Assembly: GCA_964605075.1 (NCBI GenBank)
Contig: CAZSAX010000001.1
Span: forward strand, 1 to 43,162
Origin: an uncultured Oscillospiraceae bacterium
GTDB lineage: Bacteria > Bacillota > Clostridia > Oscillospirales > Oscillospiraceae
Direction: 5' to 3'
Length of the DNA stretch: 43,162 bases
Below are positions 1-16,220 of the stretch, piece by piece. The notes beneath the pieces were generated by a model. The model was given only the letters and a program-made list of their open reading frames with translations, searched no databases and had not been told where the DNA came from. Every line of letters begins with the position of its first letter. The first letter of the stretch is position 1. The position numbers and the translations under genes were made by a program.

Positions 1-2
1 TC

Positions 3-470
3 TATACAGTCCTGTTTGTTCTGGCAGGTGTCTTCTTTGCGGCAGCGATCTTCGTGTTCTTCCAGTTTAAGATACTGGACGTCTTTGAAGATCTCAGCGG
101 CGTGAAGATTCGCAAGAAACCCGGAAAGGCAACCGGAACTCAGCCTTCCAAGCGGCGGCTTGTTAAGGTTAGTGGGAAAAAAGCGGTGGTTTCTCCGGTA
201 ACCGGGCCGGTTCCGGTTCCGCAGACTCCTACTGCGGAAGGTGGAAGCAACACCGTATGGCTGGATGAACGCCAGACGGTCAATCTGGATGAGAGTAAAA
301 CCGAAGATCCCGCAACGGAGATATGCAAGACGGCAGATATGACCGCTACCGCAGGATTGACCGGCGCGGCAACAGTGAGTCTGGCTGGTGCCAACGAAGA
401 TGCCCGCGCAGCACTGGACTTCCGTCCGGGAGCAAAAATCATAGTTACCCAGTCCATGGAACGGATTTGA
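3..470 (+). CDS. 3' end of a hypothetical single-pass membrane protein (5' end outside the window)
   Basis: Frame 3 is open from the window edge. The first residues, YTVLFVLAGVFFAAAIFVFFQF, form a hydrophobic helix, followed by a K/R- and Pro/Thr-rich tail. The listed Met at 54 lies inside the helix, so the true start is upstream of the window. No family recognised. Confidence 0.4.
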   Translation, partial: YTVLFVLAGVFFAAAIFVFFQFKILDVFEDLSGVKIRKKPGKATGTQPSKRRLVKVSGKKAVVSPVTGPVPVPQTPTAEGGSNTVWLDERQTVNLDESKTEDPATEICKTADMTATAGLTGAATVSLAGANEDARAALDFRPGAKIIVTQSMERI

Positions 471-533
471 GTAGTTTATACATTTTATATATACGCAATC
501 GAACTAACACATCGGTTGAGAGGAGATACAGCA

Positions 534-3500
534 ATGAAACACTACGGTTTTGGCAGCAGAATTCTTGCTTGGGTCTGCGTTGTCGTGATGCTGGTCATGA
601 TGATGCCCCTGAGTGGTTTTACTGCGGTTGAGGAAGAAATTGTTGAAGAAAGCCCTGTGTTCGAAGCGCCGGTCGTGCTGGCTGCGCTGGACGGCGAGGG
701 CGAATCCGGCGATCAGTCTGGTGGCGATCAGTCCGGGGATCAGTCTGGTGGTGATCAAACGGATCCTGATTCCGTTTACTATACTGTTGCAGTAGCGGAA
801 GGTATTGCTAACGGAACTGTTGTGCCCAGTGTAGGGAGCGCAGCAGAAGGTGAAACCGTCAGTATTACAGCCCCGCCCGAGGAAGGCTACAAGCTGAGTG
901 AAATCACGGTGACAGATGCCAATGGTGATCCTGTAGCTGTGACGGATATGGCATTCACCATGCCTGCCGCCGATGTCGCGATCAGTGCGGTGTTTGTAAA
1001 GCTGTATACCGTTACAGTTAGTAGTGATACCAACGGTTCTATTTCGGCAAAAACGCAGGCGGTGGCCGGGGAATCGGTCAGTATTACCGTTGAGGCAAAG
1101 GCAGGCTACAAGCTGGACACCCTGAGTGCTGTAGATGCAGAAAGAAATGATGTCCATATAACGGACAATGCCTTTACCATGCCTGCGTCTAATGTGACTG
1201 TTACGGCCACTTTTAAGACGAAAGACCACGCGATTAATACTGAGATCACTGGTAGCGGCACCATTGTGGTTGTGTCCCATGCGGATGCCAATGAATCGAT
1301 TTCTTTTGAGGTGCTTCCCGCAACGGGCTATGAACTGAGTGGGAGTGTGCTGGTGAATGGAGTTCCTGTGGATGGCAATAGCTTCACCATGCCGGAGCAG
1401 GCCACCACGATCAAGGCAGAATTTGTTCAGATCAACTATACCATTGGAAGGGATATTGATTATGATTATGGTAGCGTTACCGTGGCAGACAGCGCCCATT
1501 ATGGCGATAAAGTCAGCTTTACGCTGGCCGGAGCGGACGGACGTTCTCTGGTTGCGAATTCCCTGAAGGTTACCAGCGGTACTGACAGTATTTCTGTCAT
1601 CAAGGGTGATGATGGTGCATATTCCTTCGATATGCCTGCTGGCAATGTGGTAATCGAGGCGGAATTTGCCTATACCATAACCACGGAGAATATCGATAAT
1701 GGTGCTATCAATTGCCAAGAAAGCTTTGCCAATCCTGGCGATACAGTAGATTTTACGGTTCTGGCAGATCCTGCAGATCTTTATGAGTTGGTGGAAGGCT
1801 CTGTTAAAGTCACCTATGCTGGCGGCGAAGTTGAAGTCGCTGAAACGGATGGGGTGTATTCCTTCAAAATGCCCACCGGGGATGTAACTATTACCGCTGA
1901 ATTCAAACCCATCGAGTTTACGGTTACCTTGGTTCTGGACAGCATATATGTGAGCAGCATTGTCCGTGAAGGTGATACGACCAATAAAGACATTAAAGAT
2001 GAACTGGGATATACCCAGAGCGTAAGTGATCAAAGGAAAAATCGAAGAGGGAAGCTAATTGGAGCTACCTATACTTGCACCTTTACAGCAACCTGCGAGG
2101 ATGCGCTTGTTGTTACCTTTGAAAAAATGACCCCGGAGGCATGGGGAACTTGGATTGAGTGGCCGGATGCTTTGTACGTGGGAGCGGTCGAGGTAGGTGG
2201 ATACGAGAAGGCTGCATTAAAAACGACTTGGACTGTTGAAAAAGCGGATGTAACTGCGAATATAACGGTAACAAGTGATCCTGTTGAGACCAAGGTTGAA
2301 GTGGTGCTTGCGCCTACCAACATGAGTGCTGTAGATACTGCTGAGACCAATGTTGCGGTTGAATATGGTGATTCGTATGAGGTGTTGTTTGAGGCCGATG
2401 CTGGCTACACATTGCCTGACACCATTGTAATTACAGACGTAGAGGGAACTGTGATTCAGCCGGTGGAGACCGATGATGCCGGTAATGAAACTGTCAATTA
2501 TACTTGGACAGACCATCTCGGCGTCAAAAAACTGGTGTTCAATGAAGTAACTGAAACTATTACTGTGACAGCAAAGGCTGCTTTGAACACGGATAACTAT
2601 GTGCTGGATAAGGAACAGCCTACCGGGGATGATAACTGGTACAAGAAGCCCAGTACTGGCACAGATGCGGTGGTAATCCGCGCAATCAATGGCATGACAA
2701 TCTCTCTGACGGGTGAAGAAGGAACCTTTGCGGATACTATTACCGGCATTGAGGATGGAGATTATACGGGAGATAACGCGCTGACCATCTACACCACCGA
2801 TGGCGTGGATACGGTCTCCCAGACCCAGATACTCAAGATTGACACAAAAGTGCCTGTTATTACGGTGAGTGGTATCGAGTCTGGGGATTATACAAACAGC
2901 AACATTGTTCTGACAGTTTATGTTGATGAGATCAATTTCGCAGGTCAGGCGCCTTCTGTGTCCGTTAATGACAAGACATTCACGGATTACACTTTTGAAG
3001 CGGCTCCGGCAGAAAATACTTGGACGCTGACCATTTCTGCAGATGACGTTGATCACACAACTGATGGAGTTTACACCATTACTGTTGATGCGACGGACCT
3101 TGCCGGCAATGCAGCAGAACAGGTGAAGGTCGAGAATGTAACTCTGGATACGACAGAGCCTGTGGTGGAAGTAATCAAATACAGTGTTGACACTTATGGT
3201 GAAACCGGCAATCGCTATGTCAATGACTCCATTGATATCACTTTCCAGGTGACGGAGACAAACTTTGATGAGACTCGGTTTGCCTTTGATGGCCTTCCTG
3301 AATCTGGGTTTACCATTGGCGAGTGGAGTAGCACTGGTAATGTCCACGAAATCACCGTGACGCTGACGGCGGATCAAAACGATGGTGTATACAATGACAT
3401 CAAATTGGCTGGCACTGATATGGCCGGTAATGACGGTTCTGCACCTGCCGAGCTCATCGTTCTGGACCAGGAGGCGCCTGTGGTGGAAGCAATCAAATAC

Positions 3501-6470
3501 AGTGTTGACACTTATGGTGAAACCGGCAATCGCTATGTCAATGACTCCATTGATATCACTTTCCAGGTGACGGAGACAAACTTTGATGAGACTCGGTTTG
3601 CCTTTGATGGCCTTCCTGAATCTGGGTTTACCATTGGCGAGTGGAGTAGCACTGGTAATGTCCACGAAATCACCGTGACGCTGACGGCGGATCAAAACGA
3701 TGGTGTATACAATGACATCAAATTGGCTGGCACTGATATGGCCGATAATGACGGTTCTGCACCTGCCGAGCCCATCATTCTGGATCAGACACCTCCCACA
3801 GTGGGGGAGATTACCTATGAGTCGGGAATGCAAAAGCTGCCTCAGTGGCTGTTAGAGCTTTACTACCATGTTTTTGGCAAGACAGAGGGCGAAGATGATA
3901 TCGTCAAGGCTACGATTGAAGTGACAGACGCAACATCGCCCATCGATTTGAACGACGCATACGAACTGAAAATTGAAAACCTGCCCAGCAACGTGAAGAT
4001 CGTTGATACTACGGGTGAAGACAGTGTGGGATACTCGGCGGAAATCACATTCCAGGCGTCTGCTCAATTTATGAAGCAGTTTACGATTACGGCATATGAC
4101 CGTGCCGGGAACTTCGATACTTTGGAAGCCCACAAACAAGATGGCAACACAAACCTTCTGCTGGATACTGTTGCCCCTGTTGTTAGCGAGTGGCATCTGA
4201 CCCGCGGTGATACGGCCATTGATTATGTGGCGTCTCAGGTTCATAGCCAGAATTTGGTGCTTCACTTCACCGTTGAGGATATTATCCAGGATGAAGTCTT
4301 CTCCGGTATAAGTAAAGTGACATACTATGTCGACGATGAGTATGCGGACGGAGACAAGACAGAAGGAACTCTCTATGTGAAGGATGTATCGGATAATAGT
4401 TCGAGTCAGGCGGATTATCACCAGAGTCTTGATTCTGATGGTGGTATGCAGATTGAGATCCCCGCTTCCATGCACAGCAATTTGGTCTATGTTTACATTA
4501 ATGCCGTGGACAATGCGGGCAATGTAATGGTGGAAAAGAAAATTGGTCCCTTCCGTATGGATGCCGTGGCGCCTGTGGTCAGTGTGAGCTATGACAATAA
4601 CAGCGCCGAGAATTCTACCTATTTTGATGCGACCCGTACTGCGACGATCAGCCTACAGGACATTTCCTTTGACGGTACTGGCGCCAATATTACCACAGAA
4701 GGCTCTATCGGCTCCTGGAGTGGTGTAGACACAGACGGAGATGGCTACAAGGACGATTGGACTTGTACAGTTTACTATGGCCCCGATGATGACTACACTC
4801 TCTCCATGAGCGCCTGGGATACTGCGTCTCCCAACGCGAATACCACGGCAGACAGCGCCGTTACCTATACTGGCACGGCGACGCAGGAGTTCACCGTTGA
4901 CCGCACCGCGCCCACCTTTGAGATCACCATGGGCAATGCGGATGTGGATGTCAGCAGCGGCGGTTACAGCAACCAGAATGTGACTGTGACCCTCACTGTG
5001 GATGAGCACAACTTCGACGAGAGTGCTGCTACGGCTGGCCTTTCCGTTATCTACGAAGACGAAGACATCAGCCAGGCCATCCGCAACAGCCTGGTTTGGA
5101 GTTCCAACGGTGATGTTCGTACAGCGACCTTTACCCTGACGGATGACGGTGAGTACAAGATCAATCTCAGCTTCCTTGACCTGGCCGGCAACAGTACTGC
5201 CGCCGCGGAAGACATCGTGGTTCATGTGGACCAAACCAATGCTGAGGTCTATGTGACCGGCGTGGCTGACAAGTCCGCCAACGCCCAGGATGAGATCATC
5301 CCCGTTGTGACCATCTGGGATAAGTACTACAGCCTGGAAGGCGTGGTCATTACCCTCATTAATGGCGAAGGCAAGGATGTAACCGAGCAGTATTTGGACA
5401 TGGAGACCGGCCTTTCCGATATCGCTTATGACGAAGAGCGGGATCTGTACTACCAGACCTTTACTTTCAAGAATCTTGATGAGGATCATGTGTATCACCT
5501 GGAGGTTCGCCATACCGACCTGGCCGGCAACGTCAATACCGTTATGACGGTCCTCAATGGCAAGGGCGAGGAAGAAGTCCTTGACCTGGAAGAAAGCGTG
5601 ATGCGCTTCTCCGTCAACCGCAACGGTTCTACCTACTCCGCCAGCGAGGAAACGCTGGCGATCCTGGGCCAGTATGTCCAGTCTGCCAAGAATGTCCGCA
5701 TTCTGGAGATTAACGTGGACGAGCTGGATCCTGAAAGCATTTACATCACTTTGACCCATGACAATGTCACCCGTGACCTTGTTTATGGCGAGGATTACAC
5801 CTATCAGACTCCTCCCGAGCAGAACGATGCCAGCTGGAATGTTTATGAGTACGTTCTGGAGGACTCCCTGTTTGAGGAAGACGGCGTTTATACCATTACC
5901 ATCTACTCCGTAGATGCCGCAGGCAATGTGGCTCAGAACAACACCGCAGAAAAGGACTTTGAGATCACCTTCGTGGTCGACAAGACGTCTCCTATCTTCG
6001 TGGCTCTGAATCTGGAAGCCGGTGAGATCTACAACGAGGAACAGCATGAAGTGACCATCAACTGCAGCGATAACATCGCTTTGGATACAGTTTATGTCTA
6101 TCGTCTGGACAGTACCGCTGAAAAGGATGAGGACGGCTACTATATCTGGTTCGATAACAACGGTAATGCCCTTGGCGAAGAGGTTGCGCTGACAGCTGTG
6201 GAAGGAAGCAACGGGGACTACACTTTCGTGATCTACGAAGGCGATAGTGCTGCGACATCTAAACAGAGTGTGCTGGTGGTCTGCACCGATAAGGCGGGCA
6301 ATCAGAATATGGAGCAGGAAATCCTTGATTTCACCGTTTCCAGTAGCTTCTGGATTCGATTCTATGCCAACAAGCCTCTGTTCTACGGTTCCATCGGCGG
6401 TATCAGTGCCCTGCTGATTGTCGCGGCAGTTGTGTTTCTGCGCAAGAAGAAAGAGGACGAAGAAACCTAA
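534..6470 (+). CDS. Giant cell-surface protein (1978 aa): signal/anchor helix, about 7 InlB-B-repeat-like beta domains, a long series of Ig-like domains, C-terminal TM anchor
   Basis: ATG 534 follows GAGAGGAGA. The N-terminal hydrophobic helix is ILAWVCVVVMLVMMMPL. Residues about 90-560 repeat a roughly 75-aa unit (YTVTV..NG.V....A.GE.V.I.A.P..GY.L..I.V......V.....FTMP..DV.I.A.F). After that come many units starting D.T.P.V/APVV, typical of bacterial Ig-like folds. The protein ends with LFYGSIGGISALLIVAAVVFL plus RKKKEDEET. There is no LPXTG motif. Confidence 0.85.
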   Translation: MKHYGFGSRILAWVCVVVMLVMMMPLSGFTAVEEEIVEESPVFEAPVVLAALDGEGESGDQSGGDQSGDQSGGDQTDPDSVYYTVAVAEGIANGTVVPSVGSAAEGETVSITAPPEEGYKLSEITVTDANGDPVAVTDMAFTMPAADVAISAVFVKLYTVTVSSDTNGSISAKTQAVAGESVSITVEAKAGYKLDTLSAVDAERNDVHITDNAFTMPASNVTVTATFKTKDHAINTEITGSGTIVVVSHADANESISFEVLPATGYELSGSVLVNGVPVDGNSFTMPEQATTIKAEFVQINYTIGRDIDYDYGSVTVADSAHYGDKVSFTLAGADGRSLVANSLKVTSGTDSISVIKGDDGAYSFDMPAGNVVIEAEFAYTITTENIDNGAINCQESFANPGDTVDFTVLADPADLYELVEGSVKVTYAGGEVEVAETDGVYSFKMPTGDVTITAEFKPIEFTVTLVLDSIYVSSIVREGDTTNKDIKDELGYTQSVSDQRKNRRGKLIGATYTCTFTATCEDALVVTFEKMTPEAWGTWIEWPDALYVGAVEVGGYEKAALKTTWTVEKADVTANITVTSDPVETKVEVVLAPTNMSAVDTAETNVAVEYGDSYEVLFEADAGYTLPDTIVITDVEGTVIQPVETDDAGNETVNYTWTDHLGVKKLVFNEVTETITVTAKAALNTDNYVLDKEQPTGDDNWYKKPSTGTDAVVIRAINGMTISLTGEEGTFADTITGIEDGDYTGDNALTIYTTDGVDTVSQTQILKIDTKVPVITVSGIESGDYTNSNIVLTVYVDEINFAGQAPSVSVNDKTFTDYTFEAAPAENTWTLTISADDVDHTTDGVYTITVDATDLAGNAAEQVKVENVTLDTTEPVVEVIKYSVDTYGETGNRYVNDSIDITFQVTETNFDETRFAFDGLPESGFTIGEWSSTGNVHEITVTLTADQNDGVYNDIKLAGTDMAGNDGSAPAELIVLDQEAPVVEAIKYSVDTYGETGNRYVNDSIDITFQVTETNFDETRFAFDGLPESGFTIGEWSSTGNVHEITVTLTADQNDGVYNDIKLAGTDMADNDGSAPAEPIILDQTPPTVGEITYESGMQKLPQWLLELYYHVFGKTEGEDDIVKATIEVTDATSPIDLNDAYELKIENLPSNVKIVDTTGEDSVGYSAEITFQASAQFMKQFTITAYDRAGNFDTLEAHKQDGNTNLLLDTVAPVVSEWHLTRGDTAIDYVASQVHSQNLVLHFTVEDIIQDEVFSGISKVTYYVDDEYADGDKTEGTLYVKDVSDNSSSQADYHQSLDSDGGMQIEIPASMHSNLVYVYINAVDNAGNVMVEKKIGPFRMDAVAPVVSVSYDNNSAENSTYFDATRTATISLQDISFDGTGANITTEGSIGSWSGVDTDGDGYKDDWTCTVYYGPDDDYTLSMSAWDTASPNANTTADSAVTYTGTATQEFTVDRTAPTFEITMGNADVDVSSGGYSNQNVTVTLTVDEHNFDESAATAGLSVIYEDEDISQAIRNSLVWSSNGDVRTATFTLTDDGEYKINLSFLDLAGNSTAAAEDIVVHVDQTNAEVYVTGVADKSANAQDEIIPVVTIWDKYYSLEGVVITLINGEGKDVTEQYLDMETGLSDIAYDEERDLYYQTFTFKNLDEDHVYHLEVRHTDLAGNVNTVMTVLNGKGEEEVLDLEESVMRFSVNRNGSTYSASEETLAILGQYVQSAKNVRILEINVDELDPESIYITLTHDNVTRDLVYGEDYTYQTPPEQNDASWNVYEYVLEDSLFEEDGVYTITIYSVDAAGNVAQNNTAEKDFEITFVVDKTSPIFVALNLEAGEIYNEEQHEVTINCSDNIALDTVYVYRLDSTAEKDEDGYYIWFDNNGNALGEEVALTAVEGSNGDYTFVIYEGDSAATSKQSVLVVCTDKAGNQNMEQEILDFTVSSSFWIRFYANKPLFYGSIGGISALLIVAAVVFLRKKKEDEET
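705..758 (+). repeat. Short coding low-complexity repeat (SGDQ / SGGDQ)x4
   Basis: Translates to SGDQSGGDQSGDQSGGDQ just after the signal helix of the giant protein. Confidence 0.8.
3159..3794 (+). repeat. Near-identical 318-bp (106-aa) tandem duplication, two copies (3159-3476 and 3477-3794), inside the giant surface-protein gene
   Basis: The block PVVE(V/A)IKYSVDTYGETGNRYVNDSIDITFQVTETNFDETRFAFDGLPESGFTIGEWSSTGNVHEITVTLTADQNDGVYNDIKLAGTDMA(G/D)NDGSAPAE occurs twice. I saw only a handful of nucleotide differences (for example gta/gca, ggt/gat, ctc/ccc, gtt/att, gac/gat). Confidence 0.95.
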
Positions 6471-6544
6471 GTAAAGACAACAAACAAATATTGGGCCGCC
6501 TGTCATAGGCGGCCCAACTGGAATTAAGCGATGGAGAGTATCAA

Positions 6545-8173
6545 ATGAAACGAATTCTCTCAATGATTATCTGTCTGGCGGTGCTACTCTCGGTGCAGGC
6601 TTTTGCCGCCTCGCTGACAAGTGTTGAAATCAACCAGACAGTCCAGGATGGCGAAGATCTGTATGTGTTCTTCCATGCTGACGATGAAAATGACGAGCAA
6701 ATCAGCACTCTTGGCGAAGATGCAGTTAAGCTCGACCTTGGTGGGCAGAGTTTGACTACCGAGGTCCAGCATGCCGGCTATGTTGGCGTTGGCTATGTTT
6801 TCGCAGTAGATGTGTCCAGTTCCTTGAGTGAGGCACAGTTTGCCAGTGTTCAGGAAGCTCTTAAGAACTGGGTGGAGCGCATGGGTTCCGAAGATATGGC
6901 GGCTATTGTCACTTTTGGCGAATCGGTTACGGTTGTTACGGATTTTACGGATAACAAAAATACGCTCAGTGCCGTGATTAACGGACTGAGTGCTACGGAA
7001 GCTGGAACCGCGCTGTATAGCGGTATGATGAAAGCCATCGATATTGCCAATCGCCGCAGCGAAGATCTTCCGTTGCAGCGAGCAGTTGTCATCCTTTCGG
7101 ATGGCAAGAACGACAGCTCCGATGCGGCTGGATTATCTGAAGTCGAGTCCAAGGCCATTGACGCCGGCATCTCCTTGTATGTTGCCGGTGTAAAGAGCAG
7201 CGATAACAGTGAGCAACTGGCAAAGCTTGGCGAACTGGCCAGAACAACCGGAGGTAAAATCGTTACTGCGGATAAAGACTCTCTAGCGGATACTCTGGAC
7301 AGTCTGAGCCAGTACATTGGCAGCGGCTTTATGGCCACGGCAAAGGTTCCTGCTGAACTGGCAGATGGCAGCGAGAAGGGCCTCATTCTTACAGTCACCC
7401 ATGGTGGTATTACCGTGGATGACAGCTATGATCTGCGTGTAAAGTCTCTGGGAGAACAGACGTTGGAATCTGCGGAAGCGGAAGATGCGGTTGAAACAAT
7501 TACTGCTGAGGAGACGGTTGACGTAGTTGCAGAGGAAGTTTCTGAAGATGTGATCGAGACTTCGACGGAAGAAAGTGTGGATGCGGACGCAACGCTCGAA
7601 GGGGTGGTAAACGAAGCCGTTGGAGTAGCGACTGCGTTTAACACGATTTATATCTACATAGGCGTGGGTGTTCTTCTTGTTGGTGGTCTGGCGGCCTTTC
7701 TTATCATCAGTACGAAAAAAAGACGTGACAAACAGGCAAAGAAAAAAGCCGAACTCAGCCAAGGCTATGGCGGTGGGTATGGGAATTACTCCGGCGGTAC
7801 CATGCCGTTAGACGCTTCCGATATGACCGGGACCATGCGTCTTGACGATTATGGTGTAGGCGGCGGACAGCTCGTTCTGATGGATGTTGTCCAGGGCCGT
7901 TCCTATTCGGTGCCCATGAAAGCGAAAATTTCTATCGGTCGTCGGGAAGGAAGCAATGACATTGTTATTGCAGATGGAACGGTTTCCGGTAAGCACTGCG
8001 AGATCGTCCAGGAAAATGGTCGTTTCTATGTGCGCGATGTGGGTTCATCTCATGGCACCTATGTTGTCACGAATGGTCTTCGCTATCAGGCGGACGGCAT
8101 TTCCGGATGGGAAATCCATGTCGGCGATGAGATCGACATTGGAAAGACCAGACTGGAAGTGTCTAGCTTGTGA
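6545..8173 (+). CDS. Single-pass membrane protein: extracellular VWA domain, TM helix, intracellular FHA domain
   Basis: The start follows RBS GGAGAG. Signal peptide MKRILSMIICLAVLLSVQAFA. VWA/MIDAS-like DVSSSLS and VILSDGKND. An acidic linker, then TM helix IYIYIGVGVLLVGGLAAFLII followed by KKRRDKQAKKK. A GYGGGYGNYSGG spacer, then a C-terminal FHA domain (ISIGRREGSNDIVI..VSGKHCEI..FYVRDVGSSHGTYV). Confidence 0.85.
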   Translation: MKRILSMIICLAVLLSVQAFAASLTSVEINQTVQDGEDLYVFFHADDENDEQISTLGEDAVKLDLGGQSLTTEVQHAGYVGVGYVFAVDVSSSLSEAQFASVQEALKNWVERMGSEDMAAIVTFGESVTVVTDFTDNKNTLSAVINGLSATEAGTALYSGMMKAIDIANRRSEDLPLQRAVVILSDGKNDSSDAAGLSEVESKAIDAGISLYVAGVKSSDNSEQLAKLGELARTTGGKIVTADKDSLADTLDSLSQYIGSGFMATAKVPAELADGSEKGLILTVTHGGITVDDSYDLRVKSLGEQTLESAEAEDAVETITAEETVDVVAEEVSEDVIETSTEESVDADATLEGVVNEAVGVATAFNTIYIYIGVGVLLVGGLAAFLIISTKKRRDKQAKKKAELSQGYGGGYGNYSGGTMPLDASDMTGTMRLDDYGVGGGQLVLMDVVQGRSYSVPMKAKISIGRREGSNDIVIADGTVSGKHCEIVQENGRFYVRDVGSSHGTYVVTNGLRYQADGISGWEIHVGDEIDIGKTRLEVSSL

Positions 8174-8217
8174 AAGGCTGACTAAACAAACTATTTGTTT
8201 AAACAAGGGTCATCATT

Positions 8218-8367
8218 ATGAATGTTATATCTTTAAAAGAAGGAATCCAGCAGAAAAAACAGCAAGCAGTAGGCTTCCGAGGAACGGGCTGGCTGGCAGT
8301 GGTGCTGGCTGCTTTGCTCATGGGTTACGGCTTTGTAACGGCAAGACAACAAACGGAAAAGTCTTAA
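8218..8367 (+). CDS. Possible 49-aa single-TM small protein (below the ORF-track size cut-off)
   Basis: Translates to MNVISLKEGIQQKKQQAVGFRGTGWLAVVLAALLMGYGFVTARQQTEKS, with one clear hydrophobic helix. It sits in the gap after the VWA-FHA gene. The RBS is weak (AAGGG about 10 nt upstream). Confidence 0.3.
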   Translation: MNVISLKEGIQQKKQQAVGFRGTGWLAVVLAALLMGYGFVTARQQTEKS

Positions 8368-8879
8368 GCCAGTCCGTCAATCAATTCAATAGGATTCATG
8401 TAGACGATGGCGATGAGTGACCAAATGCACAGTATGCCGGTACATAGGAATGCCCATGTGGGATGAAGACCGGACGCTTGCAGAAACAGGACAATATCAT
8501 CGCCATCTACTACTATTCCGGCATTGTATTGAAGGGCGATGCTGAACTCTACAATATAGGCTATTGAAGAAAGCAACAGCATTAATAGAACGACAAAACC
8601 TATATATCCTCGTGCGCGAATAAATGGAAGGCTAGTGATCAATGGGAATATCATGCCGGCAAGGCTGATAATGGCAACTACGGTCGTGTTATCATGAGGA
8701 ATTCCGCTTTCCACATGAGGGATGGGGAGAAAGGAAATACTTCCTATTTTCCCGCCAAGAAGAACCGTTGCCAGAGCGTGCCCGCATTCGTGGACGAGGG
8801 GATATAGAACAAACAGCGTAAAAGCGCTGATGGGAATAAGCAATAAGAATCGAAATAATCGTTTCAAGAAGAAACCCAC
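8364..8879 (-). CDS. Polytopic membrane protein with an HExxH motif (putative zincin peptidase, DUF3267/M50-like)
   Basis: 171 aa with several hydrophobic helices. The first helix carries YPLVHECGHALATVLLGG (H-E-x-x-H). GTG start. It is the only reverse-strand gene inside the T7SS block. Confidence 0.6.
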   Translation of the reverse strand: MGFFLKRLFRFLLLIPISAFTLFVLYPLVHECGHALATVLLGGKIGSISFLPIPHVESGIPHDNTTVVAIISLAGMIFPLITSLPFIRARGYIGFVVLLMLLLSSIAYIVEFSIALQYNAGIVVDGDDIVLFLQASGLHPTWAFLCTGILCIWSLIAIVYMNPIELIDGLA

Positions 8880-8952
8880 CTTTCCTGCTGGCTAAATTAT
8901 ACCACAGATAGCCGGATATACTCAAGAAAACCCAACAGGAGACAGTTTGAAC

Positions 8953-9876
8953 ATGGAACATACTATATCATCAATGATTATAAAAGAAGGCATGACAGGG
9001 AGGAATGTCACATTTCTTCTTGCCGGACACGAAGCCTATTCTCCCACAAGTCACAAGATGATGCAGGGTATGCTCGGTGCCGGGCTCCTCTCATGTTCTG
9101 TTTATAAATACAACGGCAGACCTAAAATTATGTATTTTACAGGAAGTAAAAAAGCGCTGTCTGCGTTGGGACTATTAGAGGGTCAGCGGGTTTTAACAAT
9201 TGCCAAAAGTCTCGTGAATGTGGCGGAGCAACTTTATTCAGCGGATTTTCTGAACCTTGAGAACGTAGTAATAAGTGCAGAGCGTGTCTTTGTGGACGTG
9301 GAGTCGGAAGCATGTTACTTCATGTTCCTGCCTTTAAATAACGGAGGTTTGGGACTGGGAAGAGATCGCTTTGAGGCTCAAACAATGAACCTTCTCAGAA
9401 GCTTTGTTATGCGCTATTCGGCAGATGGTAATCCAAAGCTGCAGGAGTTGATTGGGTTCTTGTCCGGTGGAGTGGCCAGCATTCGTCAGGTTAAGCAGTT
9501 GCTTTCATCTGTGGAAAGGCAGGCAACAACCACCTACGTAAAGCTGGGAGACTCGGGTGCTCTTACGGGAAGCCACGGGCTTCATCTTGTAGGTCATGGT
9601 ACACCGGTAGCTGTTGATATCGCAATTACCAAGCCGGAATTTATATTCGGGAAAAGTGTAAACGGTGTCGATGGTACGATCTCGTTTAATAATGCAATCA
9701 GTCGTGTTCACTGTAAAGTAACTCAAAGCGGTGGAAAGACCTATCTTGCCGATTTGGGCAGTTCTAACGGAACCTATGTGAACGGTAAGAAACTGGCCGA
9801 TGGTCAGCTCGTGCAGATTCGGCCAGGAGATCGAATTCGGCTGGCAAACAGCGATTTTGAACTGCGGGAGGGATAA
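8953..9876 (+). CDS. Soluble FHA-domain protein with an uncharacterised roughly 200-aa N-terminal domain
   Basis: AGGAGA at 8937-8942, then ATG 8953 (an alternative TTG lies at 8947). C-terminal FHA domain: FIFGKSVNGVDGTISFNNAISRVHCKVTQSGGKTYLADLGSSNGTYVNGKKL..GDRIRLANSDFELR. No TM helix. The N-domain resembles the DUF6382-type region found on clostridial FHA proteins; that call is from memory and not verified. Confidence 0.75.
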   Translation: MEHTISSMIIKEGMTGRNVTFLLAGHEAYSPTSHKMMQGMLGAGLLSCSVYKYNGRPKIMYFTGSKKALSALGLLEGQRVLTIAKSLVNVAEQLYSADFLNLENVVISAERVFVDVESEACYFMFLPLNNGGLGLGRDRFEAQTMNLLRSFVMRYSADGNPKLQELIGFLSGGVASIRQVKQLLSSVERQATTTYVKLGDSGALTGSHGLHLVGHGTPVAVDIAITKPEFIFGKSVNGVDGTISFNNAISRVHCKVTQSGGKTYLADLGSSNGTYVNGKKLADGQLVQIRPGDRIRLANSDFELREG

Positions 9877-9878
9877 TC

Positions 9879-10907
9879 ATGGCAAAACCTTTGTTTGTTC
9901 TGGCAGACACAAATCCCGAATACATATCCCCCCTGGAGGCAAAACTGCTGGAAACATTCCGAGACAGCATTGATTTGGAAGTAATTGATGACCCTGGCTA
10001 CATCGACGAGTTTGCAGCGACGGCCCGTCGTATCGATGTTCTGATTGTGGCGGATAGGCTGTATAATGCGTTCCTTCGTCAAAACGATATTGGTGTTGTG
10101 TATAAGCTCACCGAGGATGCATCCGAAGAAAACCTCCAAGGTTCCGCAGTCCGCGTTGTATATAAATATGCCCATATTCAAAAAGTTTTCGGCGAGATTG
10201 AATACGGTGCGCGACAGTTTGTTCAAACGACCCGTGTGCATGCGCAGAAGACGAGGATTGTTTTGGTCTACTCTGCGGCCGGTGGGATCGGCAAAACCAC
10301 GATTGCTTTAGGTCTCAGTGCCAACTTGGCAAACAACCATAAGCGGGTTCTCTATTTGGATGCAGAGAATATCCAGGATTTTGGTTATTACCTCCAAGAC
10401 AAAAGTTCTCTGGCATCTGCGGCCAATGGCGTTCTCGGTTCTCCTGGCAGTGATTTATATAGTGGGCTAAAGCCCTATATAAAGAACGAAGGGTTTGATT
10501 ACCTCCCGCCCTTGCGCATGGCGGCGTCTGCCATGGGAATTGATTGTTCGGTGTATGGGCGAGTGGCCAAGGAGTTTCAGAAGCATGTGGATTATGACTA
10601 CATCATTATGGATACGGACTCAGTATTCGATTCCAACAAGGATGAATTGATGCAACTTGCAGACAAAGTCATTTTGCTTACAGGGGCCAGCGAGTTTGCT
10701 CGATACAAGTCTGCGCTCTTGATGAATAATTTCGCAGCTGCCGACAGCGGAAAGTTTTTGGTGGTATGCAATCATGGATATGACGGCATGAACAGCGACA
10801 GCACAGCAACCACCAGCGATGCTTCTGTTGGCAATATGGCAGGGCCGATTACCTTTGCATCCATGCAGAAGAATCGGGATATGGAGAAACTCTCTTACCT
10901 TATCTAA
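9879..10907 (+). CDS. TadZ/CpaE-like protein: N-terminal receiver-like domain plus MinD/ParA-family P-loop ATPase
   Basis: Starts 3 nt after the previous stop, with RBS GGGAGGGA. Residues 1-110 alternate beta/alpha like a CheY fold (LFVLADTN..IDVLIVADRL). Deviant Walker A VLVYSAAGGIGKTTIALGLSANLA (about 10273-10302). LYLDAE and YDYIIMDTDS resemble the A' and B boxes. Confidence 0.75.
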   Translation: MAKPLFVLADTNPEYISPLEAKLLETFRDSIDLEVIDDPGYIDEFAATARRIDVLIVADRLYNAFLRQNDIGVVYKLTEDASEENLQGSAVRVVYKYAHIQKVFGEIEYGARQFVQTTRVHAQKTRIVLVYSAAGGIGKTTIALGLSANLANNHKRVLYLDAENIQDFGYYLQDKSSLASAANGVLGSPGSDLYSGLKPYIKNEGFDYLPPLRMAASAMGIDCSVYGRVAKEFQKHVDYDYIIMDTDSVFDSNKDELMQLADKVILLTGASEFARYKSALLMNNFAAADSGKFLVVCNHGYDGMNSDSTATTSDASVGNMAGPITFASMQKNRDMEKLSYLI

Positions 10908-10921
10908 AGCGGGGAAACGAA

Positions 10922-11170
10922 ATGGCAGATAAAGCAATTATTATGTTTTGTGCAAATGGGAACCAGCGCGTCGACCTTGAAGTGCCGTTGAACATAACGG
11001 CTATTGAGCTTATCCAGGCACTGAATTCCGCATATTCTTTGGGTGTTTCTCAGGATAACTTGGCGGAAAGCTATCTCAAATGTGAGAATCCTATTGCTTT
11101 GTTGCGCGGGAACAAGACGCTTGAAGAGATGGGGATTCACAACGGAAGCAAAATAAGCTTTGAGAAGTAA
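10922..11170 (+). CDS. esaB: YukD/EsaB-family ubiquitin-like T7SS protein
   Basis: 82 aa. The beta-grasp-like pattern is RVDLEVPLNITAIELIQAL...GNKTLEEMGIHNGSKISFEK. It sits immediately upstream of essC, as in T7SSb loci. Confidence 0.75.
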   Translation: MADKAIIMFCANGNQRVDLEVPLNITAIELIQALNSAYSLGVSQDNLAESYLKCENPIALLRGNKTLEEMGIHNGSKISFEK

Positions 11171-11181
11171 GGAAATGAACC

Positions 11182-14100
11182 ATGGGAAAGAAATATAAGA
11201 TCGTAATATCCAGTGGGAACATCCATCGTGAGGCTGAACTGCCGGATGATGATATTTCAATCCGTGTGGGAACAACCGTGCGCTGCGATATTCGCATTGC
11301 GCTGCTTGCTACCAAGGAACCGGTGGAATTGGTAATGAGCCGACTGGACGGCGCTTGGTCTGTCGAATGCCCGGAGGGCCTATATTTTACCGATGGCGGT
11401 GTTCGCAAGCAGATTCGAAAGCAACTGGATCACGGTGACAAAGTTTTCGTCTTCCTGCAGTCGCAGGCCAAAAGCATTTGCACCATCGACTTTATGCTGG
11501 ACTTTGATAGTCGAGCCAAAAAGTACGACCGGATGATTGACATTCGCAACGTAAACAATCTGGTCATTGGCGGTCATCCTACGGCGGCCATCTATATTGA
11601 AGACCCATTGCTGGAAACCGATTTTATTACCATTGCAAAAAGACAGGGAAAGCTTTATCTTGCCGACTTCAATGCTCGGTATGGAGCCTACATCAATGGT
11701 GTCCGGGTTGATGGAGAGAAGGAACTGACAGATACGGATTTCTTTTCCGTTGTTAGCTACAGCTTCTATTACAAAGATGGCTTCCTTTATACGGATTCGA
11801 AAAACGGAATACGCATTAACGGCCTTCGCTCTTCTTTTGACAGCCTACATTCGGACAATATGGAGTATCCCAAGTTTGTCCGCAATGTGCGCAAGAAAAT
11901 CATTTTGTCAAAAGAGCCGATCGTGATTCTGGATCCCGAACAAAAGCCCCAGAAGCCTAAAAATAACATTTTTATGCAGCTTTTGCCGGCGGTGGGTTCG
12001 TTGATTTTGGTGGTGCTTTTACGTGGAGTGATGGGGGGCGGAGGTAGCTTTGTAATCTTCAGCGCCTGCTCCATGGCATTGGGAATGGTTACTACGGTCA
12101 TTTCCTTTATCACGGGAAACAAAGACTACAAGAAGGAAGTTGAAAAGCGCGAAAAAGATTATGCTGCGTATATTGCCGGAAAGCGGAAGGAAATTGAAGC
12201 AGTCAGGAAAACCGAGGCCCTGCAGTTATCGCAAATATACATTCCGGTTCAGCAACAACTCAAGCGGGTCCGTGAATTTAGCGGAGACCTCTTTGACCGG
12301 CAACGTGAGGATGATGACTTCCTTTGCATCCGTCTAGGCGAAGGCAGGCAGGAGGCTAAGCGGCCGATCAAGATTACTGTAAAAGAGACCATTACCGCAG
12401 CAGATGAACTGGCTAAAATCCCTCAGACCATCGCCCAAAACTACAAATATATCCCTAACGCGCCTGTTTTTATTGATTTAAAAGCAGATAACGCTATCGG
12501 CGTTGTCGGCGATGATGTGCGCCAGCGGGAAATGCTGAAGATCATGACGCTGGATATCAGTGTGCGGCATTATCACAACGACGTGAAGCTGATGTACATC
12601 CTGGGCAATGATGTCCATGAAATACAGTGGCTGCGCTGGCTGCCCCATGTCAGCAATGAGGCGATGGGCGTTCGCAATATCGTTTGCGATGACGAAAGCA
12701 AAAATGCCCTTTTTGAGTTCCTGTATGTTGAACTCACCTCCCGCGAGCAGCAGAAAAGAAACAGTCCCCACTATGTTGTGTTCGTCCTGGATGATCACGG
12801 GATGAAACGGCATCCGATTTCGGAATACATCAGCAAGGCAAAAAGTCTTGGCTTTACTTTCGTTTTCTTTGAGGTGCGGCAGGAACTGTTGCCGCAGGGG
12901 GTGGATGAGGTCGTATCGCTGGAGCGAGGCAGCAACCGAGCAACAGTGGTAACGGTTGCGAATCTGAACAATACCAGAAGCTTTTCCTACAGCGTTATTA
13001 AAAACGAGGATATGGAGAAGGTCGCCCTGACGCTTTCACCTGTATACAGCGAAGAGGTCAGTCTGGAAAATACCCTGACCAAGAGCATAACACTATTTGA
13101 AATGCTGGGAATTCTCTCTCCGGAAGACATTGACCTGAACGGCAACTGGAGCCGTGCGGCGGTACATCACTCGCTTGCGGTGCCCATCGGCGTGAAGGCC
13201 AACAATGAAACCGTGTATCTCGACATCCGCAAGCATGGTCCCCACGGCCTGGTTGCGGGTACGACGGGTGCCGGTAAGAGTGAGCTTCTGCAGAGCTATA
13301 TTATTTCTGCGTCCATCCTATTCCATCCTTATGAAGTGAGTTTTGTTATCATCGACTTCAAAGGCGGCGGCATGGTCAACCAGCTTCGGGAACTGCCTCA
13401 TCTGATCGGCGCTATTACCAATATTGACGGCAGGGAAATTGATCGGTCGCTGAAATCCATCAAGGCAGAATTGATGAAGAGACAGCGGCTGTTTGCTGAG
13501 ATGGAAGTGTCGAAGATCGGCGATTATATCCGCAAGTACAAAAGTGGCGAAGCATCTGTTCCACTGCCGCATCTGGTGATTATTGTGGACGAGTTTGCTG
13601 AGCTGAAAGCGGAGCAGCCGGAGTTTATGAAAGAGCTTATCAGCGCAGCCCGCATTGGTCGAAGCCTTGGTGTACACCTGATCCTGGCCACGCAGAAGCC
13701 GGCCGGCCAGGTGAATGAGCAGATTTGGTCCAACTCAAATTTCAAAATGTGTTTGCGCGTGGCATCGCCCCAGGACTCCAACGAAGTTCTGAAGTCCCCC
13801 TTGGCGGCGGAAATCCGCGAACCGGGCCGGGCCTATCTGCAGGTGGGAAACAACGAAATTTTTGACCTTTTCCAGTCGGCATATAGCGGCGGCCCCTCTA
13901 GTGTGGATGCGGGAGAAAAGCAGAAGACTTTCAGCGTGGCTGAGGTTTCGCTTTTCGGGAAAAGAAGCATCATTTTTCAGAGAAAACCGACGGCCCAAAG
14001 TGAAGGTAACTTCACACAGCTGGAGGCTGTGGTAAATTATGTGGCCGATTTCTGCCAGAAACAAAATATTTCTAAGCTTCCAGATATCTGCCTTCCGTCT

Positions 14101-15705
14101 CTGCCTGCGGTGCTGCCATATAAGGATGAGCAGAAGGTAAACAAAACCGAGACCTTCGTTACAATCGGGTTGTACGACGATCCGGATAACCAGCTTCAGG
14201 CCCCTGTGCGGCTTAATCTTACTAGTGGCAATGTCTTTATCGTTGGCTCGTCTCAGAGTGGCAAGACAAACCTCCTGCAAACCATCATCCGCGGCCTAGT
14301 GGAAAACTATTCGCCGGACGAACTGACACTGTATGTCGTGGACTTCAGCTCCATGATCCTGAAAAACTTCGAACATATGAAGCATGTGGGCGGCGTGGTT
14401 ACCCGTGCAGAAGATGAGGCGCTCAAAAATCTGTTCAAGCTGATGATTGCAGAGATCGCCAGTCGAAAGGATAAATTGCTGAAGGTTGGTGTGAGTTCCT
14501 ATGCGTCCTACCGAGAGGCTGGCTTGATGGACATTCCTCAAATTGTGTTGGCGATCGATAATATGACCGCACTGAAGGAAATGCTTGGGCAGGACGAAGA
14601 GGTTTTGCGGATGTTGTGCCAGGAGGGTACGACTGTTGGTATAAGTGTGGTTGCGGCCAACACACAAACGACAGGTTTCGGTTATAAATACCTTGCCTAT
14701 TTCCCGAGTCGGATTGCATTGTTTTGCAACGACAGTGCTGAATACAGCACTGTGTTTGATTATTGCCGAATGCGTCCCTTGAATACTCCGGGACGCGGGC
14801 TTGTTCAAATCAACAAATCGATTTATGAGGCGCAGGTTTATCTGGCTTTTGAAGGCGAAAAAGAGATTGAGCGAGTGCGAGAGGTTCGAAACTTTGCAGA
14901 GCGCATTAATCAAAAGTATGTGGGCCAGGGGCGTGCGACTAAAATCCCAGTGATCCCTAAGGTGCTTACCGATGATATTATGAACCGGCAGATCGAATCT
15001 CTCGGGTCATATCAAATTGGCCTTGGTTTGGATTACGCAACGGTTGAACCGGTAGTTTTGAATCTTGCGGAATTGGGGCTGCTGGGTATTTCAGGACGAA
15101 AAAGAATGGGGCGGAGCAACTTTATCCGCCATATGCTGGCAGAACTTGAAAGAAACTGTACAGTGGCTCCTGTGTCTGTACATATCGTGGACGGGATGGA
15201 TAAAAAGTTTGCGTCCCTGGAGCGGCTGAGTATCGTTGAAGAGTATACATTGATTCCCGAAACTGTCCTTGAAACGATAGCCCAGTGGGACAGTATCCTA
15301 CAGCAGCGTTATGAGATGCTCCTCTCCGGTGATGCAGACAACATGGAACAGCAGCCTCTGCTACTACTGATTATCCGAAACAACGATGTGGCATCCATCA
15401 TCAGCTCCAACAGCGAGGCACTTGCGAGATACAAGAATTTCCTTGGGAAATACAAAGCGCTGAAAGTGTGTGTGATTTTTGCAGACATGGACAATGTGAG
15501 CATTCCCTTTAATGCGCCGGAGGCGGTTAAACCATTGCGGGAGAGCCATCATTTCCTGTTCTTCGACAATCTGGCTTCGATGAAGCTGTTTGATGCGCCT
15601 ATTGCGGCCATCCGCCAGTTCAAGAAGGACATTGAGCCGGGGGATTGCTATTACACCCGGGAAAATGTGGTACGAAAAATCAAAACCGTGCTGTATGAAC
15701 AGTGA
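11182..15705 (+). CDS. essC: EssC/YukB-type T7SS FtsK/SpoIIIE ATPase (two N-terminal FHA-like domains, 2 TM helices, three P-loop domains)
   Basis: 1507 aa. FHA-like LVIGGHPTAAIYIEDPLLETDFITIAKRQGKLYLADFNARYGAYINGVRV. TM region IFMQLLPAVGSLILVVLL..FVIFSACSMALGMVTTVISFI. D1 Walker A GTTGAGKSELLQS (about 13258) with IIVDEFAEL. D2 GSSQSGKTNLLQT (about 14245) with LAIDN. D3 has a degenerate loop, GISGRKRMGRSN (about 15085). Confidence 0.95.
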   Translation: MGKKYKIVISSGNIHREAELPDDDISIRVGTTVRCDIRIALLATKEPVELVMSRLDGAWSVECPEGLYFTDGGVRKQIRKQLDHGDKVFVFLQSQAKSICTIDFMLDFDSRAKKYDRMIDIRNVNNLVIGGHPTAAIYIEDPLLETDFITIAKRQGKLYLADFNARYGAYINGVRVDGEKELTDTDFFSVVSYSFYYKDGFLYTDSKNGIRINGLRSSFDSLHSDNMEYPKFVRNVRKKIILSKEPIVILDPEQKPQKPKNNIFMQLLPAVGSLILVVLLRGVMGGGGSFVIFSACSMALGMVTTVISFITGNKDYKKEVEKREKDYAAYIAGKRKEIEAVRKTEALQLSQIYIPVQQQLKRVREFSGDLFDRQREDDDFLCIRLGEGRQEAKRPIKITVKETITAADELAKIPQTIAQNYKYIPNAPVFIDLKADNAIGVVGDDVRQREMLKIMTLDISVRHYHNDVKLMYILGNDVHEIQWLRWLPHVSNEAMGVRNIVCDDESKNALFEFLYVELTSREQQKRNSPHYVVFVLDDHGMKRHPISEYISKAKSLGFTFVFFEVRQELLPQGVDEVVSLERGSNRATVVTVANLNNTRSFSYSVIKNEDMEKVALTLSPVYSEEVSLENTLTKSITLFEMLGILSPEDIDLNGNWSRAAVHHSLAVPIGVKANNETVYLDIRKHGPHGLVAGTTGAGKSELLQSYIISASILFHPYEVSFVIIDFKGGGMVNQLRELPHLIGAITNIDGREIDRSLKSIKAELMKRQRLFAEMEVSKIGDYIRKYKSGEASVPLPHLVIIVDEFAELKAEQPEFMKELISAARIGRSLGVHLILATQKPAGQVNEQIWSNSNFKMCLRVASPQDSNEVLKSPLAAEIREPGRAYLQVGNNEIFDLFQSAYSGGPSSVDAGEKQKTFSVAEVSLFGKRSIIFQRKPTAQSEGNFTQLEAVVNYVADFCQKQNISKLPDICLPSLPAVLPYKDEQKVNKTETFVTIGLYDDPDNQLQAPVRLNLTSGNVFIVGSSQSGKTNLLQTIIRGLVENYSPDELTLYVVDFSSMILKNFEHMKHVGGVVTRAEDEALKNLFKLMIAEIASRKDKLLKVGVSSYASYREAGLMDIPQIVLAIDNMTALKEMLGQDEEVLRMLCQEGTTVGISVVAANTQTTGFGYKYLAYFPSRIALFCNDSAEYSTVFDYCRMRPLNTPGRGLVQINKSIYEAQVYLAFEGEKEIERVREVRNFAERINQKYVGQGRATKIPVIPKVLTDDIMNRQIESLGSYQIGLGLDYATVEPVVLNLAELGLLGISGRKRMGRSNFIRHMLAELERNCTVAPVSVHIVDGMDKKFASLERLSIVEEYTLIPETVLETIAQWDSILQQRYEMLLSGDADNMEQQPLLLLIIRNNDVASIISSNSEALARYKNFLGKYKALKVCVIFADMDNVSIPFNAPEAVKPLRESHHFLFFDNLASMKLFDAPIAAIRQFKKDIEPGDCYYTRENVVRKIKTVLYEQ

Positions 15706-15767
15706 CCAACAGCGAACCGTTTTGGTAAGCTGAAAAAGTCAAATATATTTTTTGGAGGAATTCAACA

Positions 15768-16064: not shown

Positions 16065-16076
16065 TCCGGCACACAA

Positions 16077-16106: not shown

Positions 16107-16220
16107 AGATATGTATTTAGAAGACAAAAGCTTACGTTTTTTCTGATTGATTTCATAAGCACCTTGTTTTTTTAGGCGTTTATGAAATCCATCAAGATTT
16201 TACAGCACAAGGGGATACAT

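Follow-up and report, generated by a model that had tools for sequence, protein, structure and literature searches.

The stretch of DNA analysed here, called the window in what follows, comprises 43,162 nucleotides from an uncultured Oscillospiraceae bacterium (GenBank assembly GCA_964605075.1, contig CAZSAX010000001.1, positions 1 to 43,162 of the forward strand). It is the whole contig and its 5′ end is the contig end. The window carries genes of a type VII secretion system (T7SS) and, among them, the gene under study, whose predicted product combines a VWA domain, a single transmembrane (TM) helix and an FHA domain. In related loci, this VWA-TM-FHA gene is co-inherited with genes for a Hanks-type serine/threonine kinase (STK), a PP2C phosphatase, YukD and EssC. 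A sequence-only reading had regarded the protein as a possible outside-in switch for the secretion system. The gene and the parts of its product are as follows, with the evidence in brackets; AF2 stands for AlphaFold2 and pLDDT for its predicted local distance difference test score.

6545–8173, + strand: VWA-TM-FHA gene, 542 aa, ATG start (Pfam, family alignment, AF2)
6545–6607, + strand: signal peptide, aa 1–21, MKRILSMIICLAVLLSVQAFA followed by ASL and cut between AFA and AS (A-x-A site kept across the family, AF2 helix 2–17)
6608–7438, + strand: extracytoplasmic module, a beta-sandwich interrupted by the VWA insert (Pfam VWA, AF2, Foldseek)
7442–7633, + strand: acidic disordered stalk, aa 300–363, with 20 D/E and 1 K/R in 64 aa (composition; pLDDT <50 at aa 306–365)
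7637–7711, + strand: single TM helix, aa 365–389, followed by TKKRRDKQAKKK (hydropathy, flank charges)
7715–7867, + strand: cytoplasmic linker, aa 391–441, with two T-M-x-L-D motifs (motif count in family linkers)
7868–8170, + strand: FHA domain, aa 442–542, with G465-R466, S481, H484 and H503-G-T505 (Pfam, AF2, Foldseek, sequence search of the PDB)

A GGAG Shine-Dalgarno sequence lies 9–12 nt 5′ of the ATG. The close family consists of about 26 full-length clusters from metagenome assemblies and one Oscillospiraceae metagenome-assembled genome (MAG). No named NCBI or UniRef entries were found for it, and a scan of GTDB genomes gave a single full-length relative, in an Oscillospiraceae MAG with a decayed locus. 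In the full-length AF2 model calculated with the family alignment (mean pLDDT 74.9; 81–94 for aa 31–300), the beta-sandwich is built from about aa 22–80 and 262–298 and the VWA insert spans aa 82–259; a long helix (aa 364–403) lies between the two folded modules and the linker is disordered. The Pfam VWA match covers residues 85–231 (E 2.9e-18). The metal ion-dependent adhesion site (MIDAS) that had been recognised from the motif DVSSSLS is complete, with D89-V-S91-S-S93, T155 and D186; with D-x-S-x-S, the downstream Thr and Asp and a matching fold, the domain is a VWA domain of the MIDAS type. In an alignment of 23 members, in which one sequence is N-terminally truncated, D89 and S91 are invariant and S93, T155, D186 and also H484 of the FHA domain nearly so. 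A Foldseek search with the ectodomain returned ITIH1 (6fpy) as best match and ArnB (8s05) just below, followed by integrin I, VWF A and anthrax-receptor A domains.

Each of the 23 family members shows exactly two hydrophobic segments; the first is at the N-terminus and ends in A-x-A, the second is located at about residues 365–389. The cytoplasmic flank of the TM helix carries a charge of +6 in the protein studied here; across the family, the stretch that follows the helix has a net charge between +2 and +9 (in most members +3 to +9) and the stretch that precedes it mostly −4 to +1, with two members having +3 on both sides. Hydropathy, A-x-A site and flank charge thus bear out the signal peptide and the single TM helix with a basic flank that had been noticed in the letters. 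Because two-segment hydropathy, flank charges, AF2 layout and fold matches point the same way, the best reading is that of a type I membrane protein with the VWA domain predicted outside and the canonical FHA domain inside. A lipoprotein was ruled out: Cys10 is not part of a lipobox and the A-x-A site is conserved.

FHA domains with G-R, S-x-x-H and N-G-T-type residues bind phosphothreonine (pThr). The Pfam FHA match (residues 462–533, E 4.2e-16) reaches 59.6 bits, with a cutoff of 20.7, and the motifs read I-G465-R466-REG, S481-G-K-H484 and S501-S-H503-G-T505. G-R is invariant in 23 relatives and S-x-x-H nearly so. This part of the original motif assignment stands; the third element, described as (N/H)-G-T, was slightly generous, as His503 occurs only in the clade of this protein. 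An AF2 model of the C-terminal 150 residues (FHA pLDDT 93–97) shows the 11-stranded beta-sandwich of solved pThr-binding FHA domains. In Foldseek, ArnA ranks top, then GarA-PknB, EmbR-phosphopeptide, OdhI and FhaA, with target-normalised template modelling scores of 0.73–0.82 for single-domain chains, and a sequence search of the PDB gives GarA and OdhI as the closest solved domains. A non-phospho FHA domain of the type III secretion system (T3SS) YscD type was rejected as the main assignment: the FHA profile scores far higher, the key residues are kept and T3SS structures appear at rank 45 in Foldseek; Pfam Yop-YscD_cpl barely passes (33.7 bits, cutoff 33.2).

The same overall architecture and length is found in a broad superfamily with signal peptide (SP), VWA, TM and FHA (annotated as VWFA-related protein, e.g. 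Desulfamplus MBF0112609.1). In its best 132 representatives of 440–680 aa, the SP and TM layout is seen in 110, D-x-S-x-S in 125 and a strict FHA pattern in 105. The superfamily members examined come from outside the Bacillota and are not located beside T7SS genes.

The VWA-TM-FHA gene is surrounded in the window by the following genes; L003 and similar labels are our names for loci of relatives.

3–470, + strand: TseH-like one-TM protein, 5′ end cut off by the contig end (homologous to the gene right after the kinase in L003, L005, L006 and L015)
516–6470, + strand: giant Ig-like surface protein, 1984 aa, TseI/TsdI-like (Pfam Flg_new_2 and Big; signal peptide, C-terminal TM)
8364–8879, − strand: small polytopic membrane protein with invariant H-E-x-G-H (weak Peptidase_M50B-like match, 17.9 bits, cutoff 26)
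8947–9876, + strand: DUF6382+FHA protein, TseJ-like, with G-K for G-R (profile matches, motif check)
9879–10907, + strand: ParA/MinD/TadZ-like ATPase, TsfV-like (profile matches)
10922–11170, + strand: YukD/EsaB ubiquitin-like protein, 82 aa (Pfam YukD, E 7e-8)
11182–15705, + strand: EssC ATPase with two degenerate N-terminal FHA-like domains (TIGR03928, 1115 bits)
15768–16064, + strand: WXG100 protein (Pfam WXG100, E 1.4e-7)

The contig begins at about residue 11 of the TseH-like gene, and LXG-like and DUF4176 genes follow 3′ of the WXG100 gene. No match to EssA, EssB or EsaA was seen in Pfam and NCBIfam scans of the open reading frames (ORFs) of the locus. As had been stated from the letters, kinase and PP2C are missing from the window: profile scans gave no Pkinase or PP2C match in any of its sizeable ORFs. 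An anti-phage defence role was rejected: PADLOC matches for the VWA-TM-FHA gene and its neighbours amount at most to weak ParA-like noise. The giant gene stops at 6470 and the VWA-TM-FHA gene starts at 6545; the gap contains a perfect 8-bp GC-rich hairpin (6493–6515, GGGCCGCC-TGTCATA-GGCGGCCC) without a T-run, which may be an attenuator or an mRNA-stabilising element.

Synteny was analysed in eight distinct loci with enough upstream sequence (L003/L004, L005, L006, L015, L008/L009, L010, L013 and L014), whose VWA-TM-FHA proteins are 42–66% identical to the query. YukD and EssC are encoded in 8/8 loci and Pkinase and/or PP2C also in 8/8; both enzymes are present in 7/8, L005 having the kinase only because the fetched stretch ends inside the kinase gene. 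Three gene orders were found.

Type A (window, L003/L004, L005, L006, L012, L015): PP2C, STK, TseH-like, giant, VWA-TM-FHA, HExGH (opposite strand), DUF6382-FHA, ParA-like, YukD, EssC, WXG100
Type B (L010, L013, L014): PP2C, STK, VWA-TM-FHA, YukD, EssC
Type C (L008/L009): STK, 1297-aa protein, PP2C, VWA-TM-FHA, YukD, EssC

The kinases of the three types differ. That of type A has about 570 aa, one TM helix and a helical ectodomain, that of type B has 357–368 aa and no TM segment, and that of type C has 1008 aa, one TM helix and faint Pfam hints of a beta-propeller C-terminal to it. Inside its kinase domain, the type C kinase of L008 (1492–4518) carries a long Ser/Thr-rich insert with several T-x-L motifs. 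The relatives' Hanks kinases look active, judged by the retained catalytic Lys, catalytic-loop Asp, DFG and APE, and the PP2C proteins keep DGMGG. Type A relatives have the TseH-like gene immediately 3′ of the PP2C-kinase pair; as the window opens within this gene, the pair of this genome is expected right outside the contig on its 5′ side. The suggestion to look for kinase and PP2C genes upstream of the window has thus been answered by synteny, in the relatives' loci and exactly where the contig breaks off, but not for this exact genome: at most 17% of the sampled words were present in public sequencing runs, which therefore hold only related strains, and overlapping contigs gave no usable 5′ extension. 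The proposed link of the protein to phospho-signalling in a T7SS locus is supported, since kinase and/or PP2C genes accompany those of YukD and EssC in the relatives' loci. Just 5′ of PP2C, L013 and L014 have a gene for a giant surface protein. Giants of type B and C loci (L013 488–4597, L014 2–3634, L008 4536–8429) finish with [SAI]-P-[EAK]-T-G-D, then a hydrophobic segment and a basic tail, which is a sortase-type sorting signal; the giant of the window (516–6470) and the other type A giants have a plain TM anchor with FWIRFYANKPLFYGSIGG before it.

The small polytopic protein encoded 3′ of the VWA-TM-FHA gene has the invariant residues H30-E-x-G-H34, P54-H55-x-E57 and D127-D128 and may be an intramembrane protease. 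The position of its gene, which in all type A loci shown with genes comes next to the VWA-TM-FHA gene on its 3′ side and on the opposite strand, together with the HExGH motif and the M50B-like match, would fit regulated intramembrane proteolysis, in which the HExxH protein would cut the TM helix after an extracellular event at the VWA domain and thereby free a linker-FHA fragment. We regard this as highly improbable: type B and C loci have the VWA-TM-FHA gene but no HExGH gene, the Pfam match is under its threshold and no site-1 protease was identified.

The pThr-binding motif of the VWA-TM-FHA protein was compared with the other FHA and FHA-like domains of the locus. Where G-R, S-x-x-H and S-x-N-G-T are expected, the two FHA-like domains of EssC have I-G-G, E-T-D-F and A-R-Y-G-A, and none of nine aligned EssC orthologues, which cover all three locus types, has the canonical pattern. 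The difference from EssC that had been read from the window alone holds in 9/9 orthologues. Because the motif residues are absent at all three positions, EssC of the locus is predicted to be unable to read pThr itself. The TseJ-like protein keeps S-R-x-H and S-x-N-G-T, while the phosphate-contacting Arg is replaced by Lys in 6/7 and by Ser in 1/7 sequences; its FHA domain may be a weaker or altered pThr reader. With the EssC motifs lost and G-K or G-S in the TseJ-like protein, the FHA domain of the VWA-TM-FHA protein is therefore alone among those compared in having the phosphate-contacting G-R. No second called gene of the type B and C loci has an FHA match at Pfam's own threshold.

What could such a reader bind? 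The cytoplasmic linker contains T-M-x-L-D twice, at T419 (nt 7799–7813) and T430 (nt 7832–7846). Similar motifs occur in the disordered cytoplasmic tail of the TseH-like protein of the window (T84, TVWLD; T92, TVNLD; a third motif, KTADMTAT), which ends in a conserved A-R-x-x-L-x-F-x-P-x-x-K-I-I-V, and the TseH tails of relatives have one to four of them each. On the + strand ORFs of the loci, clusters of the motif are confined to the VWA-TM-FHA protein and the TseH tails, save one chance case in a 1805-aa protein. In family linkers T..[LIM]D was observed 25 times against 1.06 ± 1.0 in shuffled sequences, a statistic that overstates independence because the family sequences are related. In a distant set of 119 superfamily representatives with <50% pairwise identity, T[VMI].[LIM] is enriched (29 observed, 6.0 ± 2.3 expected), whereas the Ser control is not (7 versus 6.6). 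For T..[LIM]D, a count in distant superfamily members shows no enrichment (2 observed, 2.9 expected). By these counts, the form T-x-x-[LIM]-D is specific to the T7SS-linked clade. The Thr specificity of the motif fits an FHA ligand, and the T-[VM]-x-[LM]-D sites are candidate ligands of the FHA domain. In type C proteins, the linker has T-D-[IF]-[RK] and the FHA domain has Gly for S481, which may reflect co-variation of motif and reader.

The reading that we favour, and hold to be rather probable, is that the protein is a dedicated, conserved type I membrane subunit of an unclassified T7SS variant of gut Oscillospiraceae, in which the FHA domain would serve as pThr reader for the Hanks kinase and PP2C of the same locus. 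As to the substrates of the kinase, the ligand of the FHA domain and the direction of signalling, we infer the following. The Hanks kinase would phosphorylate the T-[VM]-x-[LM]-D motifs in the TseH-like tail (in type B, in the kinase's own tail) and in the linker of the VWA-TM-FHA protein. The FHA domain would then bind the pThr sites either in trans, for assembly of a complex or recruitment of the soluble kinase, or in cis, for auto-inhibition. Binding would assemble or release a membrane complex around EssC and YukD and so license secretion, and PP2C would reset the system. Outside the cell, the MIDAS would bind an acidic ligand, which may be an external cue or, as likely, the adjacent giant Ig-like protein. 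In the latter case, the VWA domain could be a structural anchor for this surface protein rather than a sensor.

The type B kinases of L010, L013 and L014 also speak for the favoured reading, as their tails carry the motif and align with TseH tails (blastp E 7e-6); common to both are T-x-D-[LM]-D-x-T and a terminal A-R/K-x-x-L-x-F-x-P-x-x-K-I, and on this evidence the tail homology is a fusion-type link of the kinase with the TseH tail. In a separate reading, which is conceivable at a modest probability, the VWA-TM-FHA protein would supply the ligand-binding part of a receptor kinase split in two, by which type VII secretion would be gated upon contact. The soluble, sensor-less type B kinase would then be held at the membrane only by its pT-x-D-[LM]-D tail bound to the FHA domain. 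Engagement of the MIDAS by a ligand on a target cell or host, or by the giant Ig filament, would cluster the receptor, and clustering would lead to trans-phosphorylation of T-x-x-L-D motifs and switch EssC on.

The giant gene is also the starting point for a purely structural explanation. Type A loci and L011 have it directly 5′ of the VWA-TM-FHA gene, and L001 retains a fragment of it. The protein could be a subunit without any signalling role, anchoring the giant Ig-like protein by its VWA/beta-sandwich module and MIDAS, with the FHA domain as a constitutive dock for EssC, YukD or TseH, comparable to the FHA-like cytoplasmic domains of YscD/PrgH in the T3SS or to EssB in T7SSb. Because EssA, EssB and EsaA are missing from the locus, the membrane complex must be made by other proteins; in addition, the Yop-YscD_cpl profile is just over its cutoff. 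However, G-R and S-x-x-H, which are lost in the FHA-like domains of T3SS and EssC, are kept; every gene order has the VWA-TM-FHA gene in tight linkage with PP2C and a kinase that looks active; beside the FHA domain, a motif specific for Thr is enriched; and T3SS structures come far below pThr-binding FHA domains in Foldseek. We therefore consider the purely structural role unlikely.

How does the locus relate to known systems? T7SSc to T7SSj have been defined from RefSeq genomes by Garrett, Higginson & Palmer in 2024 (PMC11217815). The core of T7SSe consists of TseA, A2, B, C, D (kinase), F (PPM phosphatase), H, I, J (DUF6382+FHA) and K, and a TadZ-like ATPase (TsfV) is described only for T7SSf (PMC11217815). 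An EssC-type ATPase, a YukD-like protein and WXG100 are shared by our locus with T7SSe, T7SSf and T7SSj. The TseH-like one-TM protein with an unstructured tail and the TseJ-like DUF6382+FHA protein are shared with T7SSe, as are, in relatives, the TseD-like membrane Hanks kinase and the TseF-like PPM phosphatase; the TadZ/ParA-like ATPase (TsfV) is shared with T7SSf. Of the T7SSe core, A, B, C, H (cut), I and J are found in the window, D and F in relatives' loci only, and K was not identified. The VWA-TM-FHA protein, the ParA-like ATPase and the HExxH membrane protein are extras over T7SSe. Because a TsfV-like ATPase is located among e-type components, the locus is a mosaic of T7SSe and T7SSf parts. 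It also differs from the published variants in that the FHA domains of the ATPases TseC, TsdC and TsjC keep the pThr motif and those of this EssC do not. It is not a canonical T7SSb either, with EssC, YukD and WXG100 but without a match to EssA, EssB (a pseudokinase) or EsaA. No VWA-TM-FHA component is listed for any T7SS subtype in PMC11217815: the only VWA protein there, TscE of T7SSc, is cytoplasmic and has neither signal peptide nor TM helix, and TseK of T7SSe is a bare one-TM protein without recognised domains. A literature search gave no paper that describes a VWA-TM-FHA protein in a T7SS.

Control of T7SS variants by pThr has already been suggested by analogy with the type VI secretion system (T6SS), where binding of an FHA protein to a phosphorylated membrane component activates firing (PpkA/PppA/Fha1-TagH; TssL-Fha in Agrobacterium) (PMC11217815). 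Like that pathway, the type VII locus combines a Hanks kinase, a PP2C and an FHA protein within a secretion-system locus. Homology is limited to the FHA fold: the TIGR03354 profile of TagH/Fha1 reaches 31.6 bits (cutoff 120.25) and only over the FHA domain, and TagH/Fha1 is a cytoplasmic protein without VWA or TM that belongs to another secretion machine.

A second parallel is the Esr pathway of Schaalia odontolytica, described in a 2026 bioRxiv preprint, in which a surface sensor acts on an STK, the STK on an FHA protein by Thr phosphorylation and the latter on Esx, as established by experiment (PMC13622651). Esr and our locus, relatives included, share a surface Ig-repeat protein, vWA, STK, phosphatase and FHA. 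The Esr FHA protein is phosphorylated on Thr in a disordered region beside its FHA domain, and Esr adjoins and controls a type VII system, which makes it an experimental precedent for outside-in control (PMC13622651). But Esr is actinobacterial, includes a MoxR ATPase and a transglutaminase, neither of which has a match in the window, and has vWA and FHA on separate proteins, whereas our protein joins the two domains in one membrane-spanning chain; the two systems resemble each other only in their logic.

The position of the linker motifs recalls a third group of proteins. In GarA and OdhI, the switch is a pThr some 30 residues N-terminal to the FHA domain of the same protein; T419 and T430 are located about 20–30 residues before the FHA domain of our protein. 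ArnA (FHA) and ArnB (VWA plus beta-sandwich) form a phosphorylation-dependent FHA-VWA pair (PMC6509490). Unlike ArnB for ArnA, the VWA domain of our protein cannot be the ligand of its own FHA domain, since it is predicted to be outside the cell. GarA, OdhI and ArnA-ArnB are soluble cytoplasmic regulators of metabolism or archaellum expression.

Several observations weigh against the reading of the protein as a T7SS subunit and pThr reader. The kinase/PP2C pair of this genome is not in the contig. At position 503, most relatives outside the clade have Asn, and S481 is Gly in the type C subclade. The shuffle statistic for the linkers is weakened by relatedness, as said above. Both AF2 models have mini-strands at T419 and T430, but pLDDT there is <50 and the apparent docking of the linker motifs onto the FHA domain was not counted as evidence. 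For two members of the family, no EssC gene was seen nearby. L001 (MAG CAKTQV010000003, 9170–13954) is a decayed locus that has kept the VWA-TM-FHA gene, in the order 255-aa Ig fragment, VWA-TM-FHA, HExGH, TseJ-like, then a 99-aa WHH nuclease fragment and a SUKH immunity gene, and no EssC-sized ORF was present within the 10 kb fetched downstream. L011 (4146–8212, on a contig of 9 kb) encodes the most divergent member, 38% identical and with Ala at MIDAS position T155; it is followed by an Rv1747-like FHA-FHA-ABC transporter ATPase and an ABC2 permease and not by YukD and EssC. Finally, the architecture is widespread outside T7SS contexts, with 857 representatives at E ≤ 1e-30, and L016, a distant member, lies beside PP2C, FHA, MotA/ExbB and STK genes with no T7SS gene within 8 kb on each side.

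The last two points imply that the gene may belong to a generic VWA-FHA/PP2C/STK cassette whose output is something other than the secretion machine, such as transcription or envelope remodelling, and which neighbours a T7SS merely by a shared island or co-regulation. A VWA/STK/FHA/PP2C operon of Deinococcus has been called a signalling module (bioRxiv 10.64898/2026.01.23.701218), and the Esr1 pathway acts at the level of transcription (PMC13622651). In type B and C loci, however, the VWA-TM-FHA gene is flanked by PP2C-STK and YukD-EssC on the same strand, at 23–33 nt from YukD; the linkage has outlasted three rearrangements, and no DNA-binding output protein was seen among the core-locus genes. 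We regard a cassette of this kind as quite unlikely.

Further genes in the window concern the secretion system and its surroundings. Proteins encoded at 16970–19336, 20342–21538, 21580–21873 and 21893–22885 have probable effector or chaperone roles in this T7SS. Two large proteins in this stretch have a common N-terminus, M-[SA]-D-V-F-x-Y-I-x-E-A-N, without a Pfam LXG match; each is preceded by a helical protein of about 96–99 aa, and DUF4176 and a 330-aa protein come after. A restriction-modification pair follows (N6_Mtase/Eco57I-like, 24265–26310; S-subunit-like, 26297–26848). The GC content is about 0.47 over the T7SS locus, 0.37 over the restriction-modification pair and then about 0.60 in housekeeping genes (1–28000 versus 28000–43162). 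The T7SS region has the look of horizontally acquired DNA. One housekeeping gene of the flank with 60% GC encodes a protein that shares about 80% identity with proteins from Candidatus Faecousia and from other Eubacteriales MAGs. In a gut metatranscriptome (run X4), contigs are about 88–95% identical to parts of 1–16200, with the VWA-TM-FHA gene thinly covered; this speaks weakly for transcription of a related locus in vivo, and DNA carry-over is possible.

Altogether, the VWA-TM-FHA protein of these uncultured gut Oscillospiraceae is probably an undescribed, conserved subunit of a T7SS with a mosaic, T7SSe/f-like make-up. That pThr may control T7SS variants had been published already as a general idea; new here are a membrane-spanning candidate and exact residues, the T-[VM]-x-[LM]-D repeat. 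Because the T-x-x-L-D motifs name exact residues and phosphopeptides, the hypothesis is directly testable. The published, RefSeq-built T7SS catalogue is extended to abundant uncultured gut Oscillospiraceae and tied to a large SP-VWA-TM-FHA superfamily found with PP2C/STK pairs in other phyla. If the split-receptor reading were true, the protein would be a bacterial integrin-like outside-in trigger of T7SS firing. The finding bears on what triggers type VII secretion in Bacillota and what builds non-canonical membrane complexes, for which it offers a concrete candidate: one predicted membrane-spanning protein whose outer part is an adhesion or ligand domain and whose inner part is the one fully canonical pThr reader that the locus has.

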